NCBI GenBank assembly: GCA_018992685.1
Contig: JACVGT010000018.1
Span: 224,001-288,000 of the forward strand
From: Theionarchaea archaeon
Lineage (GTDB): Archaea; Methanobacteriota_B; Thermococci; Methanofastidiosales; SZ-28-30
Direction of reading: 5' to 3'
DNA: 64,000 bases
Under the pieces are notes generated by a model. That model searched no databases and had not been told where the DNA came from. It worked only from the letters and a program-made list of their open reading frames with translations. The translations under genes and the position numbers were made by a program. Below, in pieces: positions 34,348 through 38,201 of this stretch (positions are counted from its first letter, which is position 1; each line of letters starts with the position of its first letter).

Positions 34348-35337
34348 TCACATCCAGTAGGCGTATTCCTGAAAGAAAAGGATACTGTACCAGTTTCCAA
34401 CTTTTACTTTTATATCTTTTGGTCTTTTCAAATATCTCGTTTCAAAGTCGGGAAGCATAACCAGAACCTGAGAGGGGGTGACATCAATAACCTGGCAGTC
34501 TTTCACTGTGTACTTGGAAGAGGACAGTGCCTGGAGTTGGTTCTCACTTTCCAGGTACTCCACTTTCTTCCAAGGGAATACCTTTTCTGAATAACCATTC
34601 TTGAGGTGCAGTTTCTGTGAGGAACTTATCACTTTAAAAACCTCATTCTGGCACAGCAGTATGTCACCCGGCTTATACTTGTGCAGTAAGAAGAGAATAG
34701 TCCCTCTCTTTATGTCAGTCCCTTTCTGCCTGTCCATGCCCACAGTCGTGTATGATTCCTTCACAACTCCGCCCAGTTGCTTTCTCAGGATGTGAGCCGC
34801 CCTTAAGGCAGCTTTAGACGTTGAAAAGTAGAAATCTGTTCCTTCTTTTCGTTCTTTGATCTGTGATATAAAGTCCTTCTCTCTCAAATTTGAGACCACG
34901 ATAGAATCGATGAGTGCTCTTTCCTCTTCAGTAAGGAGGTGGTCTTGCCGTCTCACCTGGAGAACAGCCTGGTAGTATCCAGATAGCATCTTTGAGCACT
35001 GGTCACACAATGAGGGTCTCACATGGATTGTAAACTGGGTCTGCTGGACGAAAGCATGAGTCTGGTTCTCGTGGAACCACTGTCTGGCTACCACAGAGAC
35101 GGTGACTACCATGTCACGTTGTTCAATACGGTAGTCGAAATCATCCACAGGAACATGCTCTTCAACCACCTTCTCCAGGGAAATATCCCTCCACGAACCA
35201 TAGTGTAGAGCACCGCATTCCTTGCACTTTGAGAGTTTCAAATTTCTGATGAATAGAGGAGGCTGTCCTTCCAGAAAACATGGTTCGCACAGTCCCTCGA
35301 TGCGGGCCTTCCTCTTACCACACTGAAAGCACATCAT
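34348..35337 (-). CDS. nmd3: NMD3 family ribosome biogenesis protein
   Basis: CxxC repeats and CDQCSK..GYYQAVLQVR. Conserved aIF-2beta-DUF424-NMD3 context. Confidence 0.85.
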   Translation of the reverse strand: MMCFQCGKRKARIEGLCEPCFLEGQPPLFIRNLKLSKCKECGALHYGSWRDISLEKVVEEHVPVDDFDYRIEQRDMVVTVSVVARQWFHENQTHAFVQQTQFTIHVRPSLCDQCSKMLSGYYQAVLQVRRQDHLLTEEERALIDSIVVSNLREKDFISQIKERKEGTDFYFSTSKAALRAAHILRKQLGGVVKESYTTVGMDRQKGTDIKRGTILFLLHKYKPGDILLCQNEVFKVISSSQKLHLKNGYSEKVFPWKKVEYLESENQLQALSSSKYTVKDCQVIDVTPSQVLVMLPDFETRYLKRPKDIKVKVGNWYSILFFQEYAYWM

Positions 35338-35630
35338 AGTCTGACCATTTGGGCGTGCACAGTCTCTCCAATTTGAAGGACATTTTCTGGGTCAACAAGT
35401 CCCAGCTCAACAGCTTTTCCCACAATTTTCTCACCCACTAAATTCAGAATGGTGGCCCTAAGCAGGAAAGCTCCGGAAGCATCCAGTGTTATGCACTCAC
35501 CGCAGTAGAAATCCTCCTTCACCTCCAGATACAGATCATCTTCCTGGAATGTTCTTCCTGCAAGCTCAGCATCACACCCTGCCACCAGTGTTTCGGTGCC
35601 TGTCCTGAACATTCTCACGAAGACATCCAT
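35334..35630 (-). CDS. DUF424 family protein
   Basis: LVAGCDAELAG, FY.G, ATILNLVG, HAQ. Confidence 0.85.
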   Translation of the reverse strand: MDVFVRMFRTGTETLVAGCDAELAGRTFQEDDLYLEVKEDFYCGECITLDASGAFLLRATILNLVGEKIVGKAVELGLVDPENVLQIGETVHAQMVRL

Positions 35631-36046
35631 TAGATCGACCTGACAGAGTGCCTGGCACCACATGCTTCACACTGCAAGAACACAATTCTGCCTTCCCTGA
35701 AGAGACGGGTATCAGGTTTTCCACACTCGTGACACAGCACATAAATGGCAGCATACTTCTCTACTTTTTCATTGATCTGATAACTGGAGAACCGCCCCTG
35801 AAATACAGCACCCCTGCTCTCGAAGTTACCTGATGTAGCCAGTTCGCCAGAGAGGAATTTCATGAGATGGCTGGGATCGCGGCTCATTCTCTGAGCAATC
35901 TCCTGGAAATTCTTGATAATTGTCCGATTACCCATGGTGAAGGAATCAGATTTAGGTATCTCAAACCTGCTCTTCTCAAAGACTTTTTCCGGCAGTTTGG
36001 AAAGAGCACGATCCAGCATATTTTCATAAGCATACGTGAATTCCAT
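35630..36046 (-). CDS. eif2b: Translation initiation factor aIF-2 beta
   Basis: YENMLDRA, RFEIP, GNRTII.NF, ELATSG, CHECGKPDT...CEACGA. Confidence 0.95.
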   Translation of the reverse strand: MEFTYAYENMLDRALSKLPEKVFEKSRFEIPKSDSFTMGNRTIIKNFQEIAQRMSRDPSHLMKFLSGELATSGNFESRGAVFQGRFSSYQINEKVEKYAAIYVLCHECGKPDTRLFREGRIVFLQCEACGARHSVRSI

Positions 36047-36204
36047 GAAGTGATTTCATTTGTATGTTTATAAACCTGGTGGTAGATTGTCGCTTGCTAG
36101 AAGCGAATTTTCAGACAGGAGAAGTGATCTCATTGAGGTAAGACACCCATGCCCGCCACTTTTTGAGAGATAACTTCCACACCAAACAAAACAGAGGCAA
36201 AAGG

Positions 36205-36479
36205 AGAAAAAAGATTCACCGGAAGAATGAATATCTCAGGGAGGTGGGTCATCTGGCGCGAATCCCAAGAGGTCCCAGAACATCATCGCATTCAACGCAC
36301 CTCCGGGCACCAGACGTTCTGTGCTGCGCTGTGGTGCTGCTCATAGCCACAATGCTGATGGTTTCTCTACTTGCAGAACATCTTTCTCTATTTGCCTTTT
36401 CCACCCTTACCCAGTTCAGTGGACACTGAGCACTGTCTTCTCAGTTCCACCAGATGACCCATGGGTGGTAATGTCCACT
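36205..36479 (-). ncRNA. Candidate structured non-coding RNA of ~275 nt
   Basis: Minus-strand TATA TTTATTAA (36499-36506). 14-bp long-range helix TGGGTCATCTGGTG/CGCCAGATGACCCA, further stems with G-U pairs, terminal hairpin and T-tract. No credible ORF. Confidence 0.5.
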
Positions 36480-36600
36480 ACTTATTTGGAGGTCAGGATT
36501 AATAAAGATTTCCCTTGTATCACATAAGCAGGTTTAGACCTCGATGGTGTGGATGACTTTCTTCTCATTTTTCCTGATTCATAGATACAACACCATGAGT

Positions 36601-37926
36601 CTAGAGTACTTGAATTCTCTTCCACCCGCCTCTCTTGAACCTGAGCGCTACAAAGAAGGCCCTTGCAGCATATTCCACGACCATGGCAATCCAGGCTCCA
36701 ACAACTCCCCAACCGAGGCTAAACCCAAGTGCCATGGCAAGAGGGATTCTAAACCCGTACAACCCTACTGTGGACGCATATAATGGCCACTTCGTATCCC
36801 CTGCACCCCGCAATGCACCTCCAAGAGTAAAATGAGTTGCTATTCCCGGCATTCCGAAAGCAAGAAGCCTGATGAATATCACCGCCCTGTCAATGACCGC
36901 TTCCTCTCTCACAAATATCACGGCAATGTCCCTGGCAAAGATGAAAATGAGAATACCCACAATTCCCATGAGCACCAAGGAAAGTCTACATGCTTCCCAT
37001 CCACTTTTCTCTGCTTCTGCGGGCTTTCCTGCGCCCAGATTCTGACCCACCAGCGCAGTTGCAGCAATTGCAAATCCAAATCCAGGCATGAAGGCAAAGC
37101 TTTGTATCCTGATTCCAATCTGGTGAGCAGCAATACTTTCTGTCCCGAAAGATGTGATGATCACCATGTACGCCAGAAACCCTATCTGAATCACCAGTTG
37201 TTCCAAGGCTGCGGGAGTGCCAACATTCAGGACTTTTCTAACCGTGGAAGAATCCAGTGAAAATCTCCTGAAAGACACGTATAGTTTCAGCTTTCTCTGC
37301 TTGAGGAGCACCAAATATATGCTGGCACCCACGACGAAAGAAATCGTTGTCCCCAATGCAGCCCCCTTCACACCCATGGGCTCAAATCCCAATTTCCCGA
37401 AGATCAGTATGTAGTTCAATCCTACATTGGTCACATTGATGAGGGAACTAATGATCAGAGGGGTCTTCGTGTCACCTGCTCCTCTCAGAGCCTGAGCTGA
37501 AGCAAGACATATAAAAATAAACCCGATACCCAAGGCAGCGATCTCAAGATACTGGGAACCCAGAGCCAGGACTTCTTTTTCTGCCTGATATATCTGCAGG
37601 AGACCACCTGCAAAGAAGTACAGGAAAGGTGTTAGGAGGAAGGCTCCCGCGGCACCTGAAACCAGTGATTGTTCCAGAACGTGCCTGGCCTGTTCTATGT
37701 TTTCTTCTCCAATACTCCTGGCCACCATGGCTACAGTCCCTGCTGTCACTGCAATCATCAGGGATTGAAAGATAAACACAACCTGGCCGCCCAGCCCGAC
37801 GGAAGCAAGGTAGTCTGCTCCCAGACTTCCCACCATAATCATGTCTGCTGTAAGGGTTAACGTGTGAAGAAGATTGTCAATGACTGCGGGCCATGCAAGT
37901 GCCAGAATATCTCTCCTTGTTTGCAT
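36601..37926 (-). CDS. MATE family efflux transporter
   Basis: About 12 TM segments, LAWP, LRGAGDTKTP and LRGAGDTKWP, VGQNLGAG. Confidence 0.93.
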   Translation of the reverse strand: MQTRRDILALAWPAVIDNLLHTLTLTADMIMVGSLGADYLASVGLGGQVVFIFQSLMIAVTAGTVAMVARSIGEENIEQARHVLEQSLVSGAAGAFLLTPFLYFFAGGLLQIYQAEKEVLALGSQYLEIAALGIGFIFICLASAQALRGAGDTKTPLIISSLINVTNVGLNYILIFGKLGFEPMGVKGAALGTTISFVVGASIYLVLLKQRKLKLYVSFRRFSLDSSTVRKVLNVGTPAALEQLVIQIGFLAYMVIITSFGTESIAAHQIGIRIQSFAFMPGFGFAIAATALVGQNLGAGKPAEAEKSGWEACRLSLVLMGIVGILIFIFARDIAVIFVREEAVIDRAVIFIRLLAFGMPGIATHFTLGGALRGAGDTKWPLYASTVGLYGFRIPLAMALGFSLGWGVVGAWIAMVVEYAARAFFVALRFKRGGWKRIQVL

Positions 37927-38201
37927 TATGGTGCAGATATACCATCAGCTTATAAAGACTTCGGTCTCGCATGGGAAAAGACGCTGGAAAGACAAATTCC
38001 TATGTTTAGAGGAGAAAGCAGCTAGGTTTCCGCATTAAAACTTTGAACAAGAGGGTACACCAAGAAATCCGGTTTTGAATAAATGAGGAAAAATATTTAA
38101 AGATCACAACTATTGTATCTTTGGCAAGAACCTGGAAATAGTAAGTCCTTCATGTCATCAGGACGTATCCATTCCAGAACAATACTAAAGGAGGTATTAT
38201 T

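Follow-up and report, generated by a model that had tools for sequence, protein, structure and literature searches.

Which kind of element fills the spacer between a MATE transporter gene and the aIF-2 beta gene in a member of the Theionarchaea, archaea that are known from metagenomes only? In the stretch of DNA analyzed here (the window, 64 kb), both genes lie on the minus strand, MATE at 36601-37926 (Pfam MatE, E 9e-68) and aIF-2 beta at 35630-36046 (Pfam eIF-5_eIF-2B, E 2.5e-36). The element sits in the 554-nt spacer separating them, also on the minus strand. An earlier note, made from the letters alone, had described complementary segments at this place and had proposed a novel non-coding RNA with alternative folds, or else a MITE-like remnant. 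All of the segments are indeed present, as seen by reading the sequence and with a repeat finder. Our results indicate that the element is very probably a real, new and lineage-restricted gene for a structured small RNA, previously undescribed. A full-text search on Theionarchaea and non-coding RNA found no paper on such RNAs.

Layout of the element

In 5' to 3' order, the element consists of a promoter, a 20-nt leader, one strand of a closing helix, a body of ~190 nt, the complementary strand of the helix, a tail, a hairpin and T6. Its core is ~245 nt long (36480-36237, minus strand). The individual features are the following.

36512-36499, minus strand: promoter, with a BRE-like GAAAYC (GAAAUC in the window) and the TATA box TTTATTAA at 36506-36499; motif present in 4/4 homologues
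36461-36480, minus strand: variable 5' leader, carrying the 5' strands of stems P1 and P2 of the earlier note; poorly conserved between the two clades
36448-36460, minus strand: closing helix H1, 5' strand GGGUCAUCUGGUG; identical in 4/4
36426-36444, minus strand: hairpin P3, CUGAG-loop-CUCAG; four of five pairs invariant in 4/4
36400-36423, minus strand: hairpin H2, UCCACU, 12-nt loop, GGUGGA; one compensatory change, 91.7% of cells paired
36375-36387, minus strand: short local hairpin AGAA/UUCU between purine-rich repeats; 81% of cells paired
36326-36355, minus strand: central hairpin Hc, GCAUUGUGG-loop-CCACAGCGC, with the loop AGCAGCA at 36341-36335; 94% of cells paired
36264-36307, minus strand: helix H3, CCCGGAGGU...ACCUCU(U)GGG around a variable 25-nt hairpin region; 9/9 pairs kept
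36259-36263, minus strand: junction AUUCG between H3 and H1, invariant by column conservation
36246-36258, minus strand: closing helix H1, 3' strand CGCCAGAUGACCC; two wobble swaps between clades
36237-36245, minus strand: 3' tail ACCUCCCUG, with the anti-Shine-Dalgarno-like ACCUCC at 36245-36240, invariant in 4/4
36207-36232, minus strand: terminator-like hairpin ATTCA...TGAAT (36232-36228 with 36218-36214) and T6 (36212-36207), read from the sequence

The TATA box upstream and the CACCUCC after the closing helix, followed by a hairpin and a T-tract, had both been pointed out before and were recovered here. From the position of the TATA box and the usual archaeal TATA-to-start distance, we infer a transcription start at ~36476-36480. 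A stand-alone gene on the minus strand would thus be transcribed from its own BRE/TATA (36512-36499) and would stop at the oligo-T at 36212-36207, yielding a structured non-coding RNA of ~245-270 nt. A scan for bacterial-type promoters and terminators was also run, with models that are uninformative for an archaeon.

Homologues and selection

The element has few relatives. BLAST among 40 relatives gave a match in one, the congeneric G001 (locus L009), and a scan of metagenome contigs guided by the MATE protein yielded 80 loci, two of which carry the element (L065 and L066). Together with the window, these make four homologous loci. In L065 and L066 the MATE protein is 77% identical to that of the window and the element about 70-71%. 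As their cores are 98.8% identical to each other, the four loci represent three independent lineages. A covariance model of the element (R1) matched in 2/34 genomes of the order and 2/133 of the class, the genome of the window (G000) counted, with one match each in G000 and G001. An exact 20-mer from the 3' block was found in none of the metagenome contigs, and a two-block pattern in none of the viral contigs. With nhmmer at E up to 10, nothing was found in 78 of the 84 loci L061-L144, including the MATE orthologues L067-L069, and the match in L115 reached an E of 6.6 only.

These three MATE orthologue loci (70-74% identity) lack the element. In L067, the region downstream of the MATE gene holds a 555-aa ORF with an NPPF motif (L067:3440-5107, minus strand), which by eye looks like an N6-adenine DNA methyltransferase. 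G002 (congeneric, 84% complete) and G003 do not carry the element either, and their aIF-2 beta genes have other upstream neighbors, so the element is either dispensable or young. When a broader model, R2, was searched in the order, a match in G003 scored 15.6 bits (E 0.02), with its closing helix unpaired and a GC content of 34%, and was rejected as spurious. The site of this marginal match (L147:784-1850, on contig G003:C31 of the sister genus) is an A-rich stretch of ~1 kb with 34% GC and no ORF of at least 70 aa.

Where present, the element keeps its place. It lies directly downstream of the orthologous MATE gene in all four loci, and aIF-2 beta is the next gene in three of them. In L065, a transposase-like ORF stands in place of aIF-2 beta, and the element is intact up to the oligo-U. 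This ORF of 172-183 aa (L065:4139-4690, minus strand) follows directly after the element, in the usual place of aIF-2 beta, and by eye we take it to be the C-terminal part of a DDE/IS4-type transposase. Because the near-identical L066 retains aIF-2 beta, L065 seems to have undergone an insertion or rearrangement not long ago, which left the RNA gene untouched.

Sequence conservation is concentrated on the element. Between the window and G001, the core is 87.9% identical, compared with 40% and 51% for the flanking spacers and 60% for the third codon positions of MATE; between the window and L066, the corresponding values are 70.0%, 53% and 47%, and 45%. The conserved block spans from the promoter motif to the tail. 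The motif GAAA[C/T]CTTTATTA[A/G] occurs in 4/4 homologues, even though identity in the spacer before it is just 40-53%. An oligo-T also follows the element in 4/4, via differing sequences: G001 has another hairpin and UUUUCUUCU, and L065 and L066 have UUUU(U) directly after the tail. With BRE/TATA and oligo-T motifs conserved in all four loci, the candidate archaeal sRNA gene is, judging from these motifs, a stand-alone one. The conservation pattern argues that the element is under purifying selection as a unit, and is that of a transcription unit whose RNA is selected.

Predicted fold

The fold was assembled from the helices common to both clades, and the four sequences (window, G001, L065 and L066) were aligned to it by a covariance model. 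In this alignment, which is fitted to our own structure, the predicted fold has 6 helices with 46 pairs, and 95.1% of the 184 cells hold standard pairs. Among the four sequences, two pairs show double-sided (compensatory) changes and six show wobble-compatible one-sided changes, and 78/92 paired columns are invariant vs 74/160 unpaired ones. The observed number of double-change pairs was reached by 348 of 500 shuffles. Because there are only three independent lineages (L065 and L066 being 98.8% identical), the covariation rests on two double-sided events.

The RNA is predicted to fold as a multi-branch junction, in which a very stable 13-bp helix (36460-36448 with 36258-36246) would close the molecule and from which five hairpins (P3, H2, the short local hairpin, Hc and H3) would branch off, with purine-rich linkers between them. 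The closing helix keeps all 13 pairs in 4/4 copies, with 100% of cells paired. Its pairing probability is ~1.0 in all four homologues, and it is also part of the MFE fold. In the window, the repeat finder detected 12 nt of it as an exact inverted repeat (36245-36256 with 36450-36461), which stretches to the 14 bp described before by including one U-G. Between clades, it shows one U-A to U-G and one U-G to U-A swap, both tolerated on the minus strand only. H2 has a compensatory C-G to U-A change between clades; in Hc, a U-G is replaced by A-U in a compensatory change, a G-C turns into G-U and an A.C into A-U; and H3 keeps 9/9 pairs with one G-U to A-U, and its interior differs between clades. 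The short local hairpin is far stronger in L065 (8 bp), and the P3 loop varies in sequence and length. Wobble and compensatory changes keep the helices on the minus strand alone. Three unpaired runs are invariant, AGCAGCA in the Hc loop, AUUCG in the junction and ACCUCC in the 3' tail, and H3 holds an internal SD-like GGAGGU.

Not all of the pairings proposed for the window are shared. In L065 and L066, five of the eight pairs of P1 and three of the five pairs of P2 are broken, which takes the 5' three-way domain of the earlier note out of the common structure. The internal stem GAUGUUCUG/CAGAACGUC is not kept either: its segments are present in the window, but four of its nine pairs have unpaired cells in L065 and L066, and one row breaks the pair of columns 105-173. 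On the four aligned sequences, the 5' three-way domain is restricted to the window and G001, and H2, which competes with P1, is its conserved alternative. The comparison thus lends no support to the idea of alternative folds, since only the closing-helix fold is conserved. Other repeats found in the window are an exact inverted repeat AGTGGACA/TGTCCACT (36418-36425 with 36472-36479), a 90% inverted repeat GGAGGTGGGT/ACGCACCTCC and a direct repeat CAGAACATC in two copies.

The description as highly structured stood only in a weak form. Compared with shuffled sequences, the 302-nt span originally outlined does not fold better on the minus strand (z -0.38, 32/100 shuffles at least as good), and the plus strand gives a z of 0.00. 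For the trimmed core, predicted fold energies are modestly better than those of shuffles, with z -1.90 in the window (9/200 shuffles), -2.08 in G001 (4/200) and -3.16 in L065 (0/200).

On either side of the short hairpin, a purine-rich direct repeat (GCAAGUAGAGAAA and GCAAAUAGAGAAA, 36362-36395, minus strand) is visible in the window, and AAGAG..GAA motifs that resemble it are present in G001 and L065. This repeat motif may be a candidate protein-binding motif.

Comparison with known RNA families

None of the 4227 families of Rfam 15 reached its gathering score anywhere in the 64-kb window, which supports novelty. At E up to 10, the best match in 35900-36800 was SNORD125, with 19 bits vs a cut-off of 56 (E 0.99). 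Within the region, neither the model of archaeal RNase P RNA (RF00373) nor that of SRP RNA (RF01857), each normally encoded by one gene per genome, produced a match even at E up to 10; the RNase P RNA of this genome is found at C6:13482-13785 (143.1 bits) and its SRP RNA at C5:176995-177308 (170.9 bits). Both resemble the element in size, in the long helix formed by their 5' and 3' regions and in having a multi-branch core, yet the element matches neither model and the genome has its own genes for them elsewhere. Short likenesses to the conserved parts of RNase P RNA from bacteria were dropped, given their wrong order, the lack of an RF00373 match and the real gene on C6. ARAGORN detected no tRNA or tmRNA gene in 35500-37200.

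C/D box sRNAs have a C box (RUGAUGA) and a D box (CUGA) near their ends. The weak SNORD125 match rests on an AGAUGA...CUGA pair that is not kept in L065 and L066, which have AGAUGG and no CUGA after the tail, and this candidate was rejected. For self-cleaving ribozymes there was no Rfam match either. The hammerhead core has the consensus CUGANGA and GAAA, which CUGAGAA of the window misfits, and L065 has CUGAACC.

Presence in RNA libraries

Public sequencing data offer a view on transcription. Part of the window is contained in 18 public runs from 8 studies, among them two metatranscriptomes with small shares, and contigs of these runs were compared with positions 35630-37000. In RNA run X9, a 212-nt contig covers 36245-36443 with 0 differences (word depth 64.9), and in RNA run X11, a 145-nt contig covers 36318-36441, also with 0 differences (word depth 31.8). 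Contigs of the neighboring genes have word depths of 2.9-4.7, and such depths cannot rank expression. X9 and X11 come from one study, and their contigs give neither strand, true ends nor level. They span neither MATE, the spacers, the first ~37 nt nor the tail, and run X21 gives no cover; such absence is no evidence. The element is present in RNA libraries, from the habitat of its uncultured sediment archaea.

Directly past 36443 and 36441, the X9 and X11 contigs run on with AGATCGGAAGAGC (ACACGTCT), letters that we take to be Illumina adapter. If so, many inserts ended at 36443/36441, positions that fall within the 5' strand of P3, a few nt beyond the closing helix on its 3' side. Such a discrete end at 36441-36443, seen in both RNA runs, points either to processing or to a stop of reverse transcription just 3' of this helix. 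At the other side, a contig of DNA run X3, from the same study as the RNA runs, extends from 36245 to 36913. A second X3 contig, at depth 300, has 14 differences in aIF-2 beta, then replaces 36084-36236 by 134 letters of its own and returns to the window sequence exactly at 36237. Read as sequence, it therefore points to a second, more abundant strain in the X3 sample, with the same element and another downstream spacer. Because the contig stop at 36245 coincides with this strain branch point in the DNA, it probably reflects a break in the assembly, not the end of an RNA.

The suggestion of a novel non-coding RNA is thus upheld by several lines: no Rfam match, no conserved ORF, conserved promoter and oligo-T, a conserved block that coincides with the predicted RNA, helices preserved by wobble and compensatory changes on the minus strand alone, and RNA-library contigs. 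Similar to orphan structured ncRNAs from comparative genomics and metagenomes, the element is defined by conservation, helix-preserving changes, promoter and terminator, in uncultured hosts. In contrast to them, it has few homologues in three lineages, and therefore lacks statistical support for covariation, but it has the support of RNA libraries, which many candidates lack.

A possible role in trans

As a whole, we consider it fairly likely that the locus holds a gene of its own for a structured non-coding RNA, whose most likely role is that of a trans-acting riboregulator or an RNP RNA, possibly via the invariant ACCUCC tail. The invariant AGCAGCA, AUUCG and ACCUCC would be candidate contact sites of this RNA. 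The organism makes heavy use of SD sites, so the CACCUCC of the tail could mask sites of the GGAGGUG type. SD-type 5-mers peak at -13 to -9 before 2471 candidate starts (174-236 per position vs a background of ~10), GGAGG occurs in 232/2471 near windows vs 35/2471 control windows, and the top 7-mers upstream of starts are AGGTGAT and GAGGTGA. The anti-SD sequence itself can be inferred from SD usage only, because the MAG is without a 16S rRNA gene.

Archaeal intergenic sRNAs can mask ribosome-binding sites, as proposed for sRNA154 and sRNA41 of Methanosarcina mazei (PMC5867862). The element resembles these sRNAs as an intergenic RNA that, judging from its promoter motif, has its own transcription unit, in an SD-using archaeon, without an ORF and with an invariant C-rich stretch complementary to GGAGG. 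It differs in being larger and more branched (~245 nt, six helices) and in having its C-rich stretch not in a hairpin loop but in a 3' tail next to the long closing helix, and the likeness is one of mode, with no relationship in sequence expected. By analogy, the C-rich anti-SD-like tail would pair, alone or with other invariant loops, with GGAGGUG-type ribosome-binding sites. That the RNA acts in trans as such a riboregulator, via its tail, is a tentative proposal.

Several results speak against this proposal. In the predicted ensembles, the tail is only partly unpaired in the window (mean unpaired probability 0.33), its CUCC pairs with a 5' GGAG in L065 and L066, and in G001 CCCUG lies inside the terminator hairpin. 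A target search by 12-14-nt complementarity gave 13-mer counts near chance, with none standing out. The sole 13-nt complement to the tail (C11:17078) has no start codon after it, and the 13-mers that recurred belonged to paralogous genes or to T-rich stretches. Furthermore, MATE and aIF-2 beta have a conserved TTTATAA ~26-33 nt before the ATG and no SD (37927-37960 and 36047-36080). They are probably leaderless, in a genome with many SD-led genes, and such leaderless-looking neighbors count against masking of their ribosome-binding sites by the tail.

Alternative explanations

Could the element encode a small protein, on either strand? In the window, it overlaps with mechanically called ORFs of 40-88 aa, an antisense ORF of 115 aa occurs in L065, and a GGAGGUG lies 6 nt before an AUG that opens the only SD-led mini-ORF, of 16 codons. 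But in G001 this AUG is AUA and a UGG of the frame is a UGA stop, and no frame is open in both the window and G001, nor open and similar in both clades. The alignment has indels of 1-2 nt dispersed throughout, two of 1 nt between the window and G001, and Pfam gave no match for 4/4 ORFs tested, making a coding role extremely unlikely. Hardly more credible is a non-functional remnant, be it a MITE, another mobile-element relic or a decayed gene fragment. Like a MITE, the element is ~250-300 nt long and non-coding, with inverted repeats near its ends (here forming the closing helix); its taxonomic range is narrow, and an IS-type transposase adjoins it in L065. Unlike MITEs, it is single-copy, syntenic, selectively constrained and without flanking duplications. 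BLAST found one copy in the 3,026,495-base assembly (91% complete), the next best match having an E of 0.12 and lying outside the element, and each of G000 and G001 has a single covariance-model match. With one copy in the 3.03-Mb genome there were no target-site duplications to seek, and the slot is the same in 4/4 loci. A core conserved far above flanking spacers and synonymous sites, helix changes that preserve pairing and the presence in RNA libraries all argue against a relic, and the MITE-like option of the earlier note is best abandoned. A cis-acting part of an mRNA, either a structured 3' UTR (or 3'-UTR-derived RNA) of MATE or an attenuator-type leader of the aIF-2 beta operon, also seems improbable. 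The element does lie immediately downstream of MATE in the same orientation in 4/4 loci, the window has no oligo-T between the MATE stop and the element, so that read-through is possible, and mutually exclusive pairings precede a hairpin and T-tract at the end. On the MATE side, however, a conserved BRE/TATA stands in a spacer that is otherwise unconserved, G001 has a hairpin and T6 after the MATE gene, and the MATE orthologues L067-L069 do without the element. On the other side, aIF-2 beta has its own TATA ~30 nt before the ATG in 3/3 loci, behind an unconserved spacer, its homologues in G002 and G003 have no element, and L065 retains the element though a transposase gene replaces aIF-2 beta.

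More weight, if still short of likely, goes to an RNA that does not regulate by base pairing but is the scaffold or active part of an RNP, or one that is processed or processes itself. Protein binding or tertiary contacts would then take place at the AGCAGCA loop, the AUUCG junction and the purine-rich linkers, and 36441-36443 would be a maturation site. The size and complexity (six helices, 46 pairs) would fit, as would the invariance of the H1 5' strand, which exceeds the needs of pairing, the purine-rich motif GCAA(A/G)UAGAGAAA in two copies, the similar discrete end in two RNA runs, 2 nt apart, and a tail that is not clearly accessible in the predicted ensembles. Yet none of the 4227 Rfam models, self-cleaving ribozymes included, matches, ends that differ by 2 nt are imprecise for a ribozyme, no gene for a partner protein is consistently linked apart from the MATE transporter, and the distribution is very narrow (2/133 genomes of the class).

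Possible significance for translation control

Being conserved, branched and found in environmental RNA libraries, the 245-nt RNA makes a concrete candidate for the founding member of an RNA family. It also gives access to post-transcriptional control in a lineage of uncultured archaea whose use of Shine-Dalgarno initiation is clear. The narrow range (three lineages) limits its general importance, unless the RNA mimics part of the translation machinery. In that case, the 13-bp clamp would hold the body, and the tail ...CCCACCUCC (followed by UUUU-3' in L065 and L066) would mimic the 3' end of 16S rRNA. Tail and the internal GGAGGU in H3 could titrate SD leaders, 30S subunits or an initiation factor, and the RNA would be matured through a cut at 36441-36443, immediately 3' of the clamp. 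That the element represents such a new class of structured archaeal RNA, acting on translation itself, is rather unlikely. In 3/4 loci, it adjoins a translation-related cluster of aIF-2 beta, DUF424 and NMD3. Within the window, this cluster (34348-36046; aIF-2 beta, DUF424 and an NMD3-family protein, by Pfam) consists of overlapping or abutting frames, and as a translation and ribosome-biogenesis cluster it is kept in G001, L066, G002 and G003.
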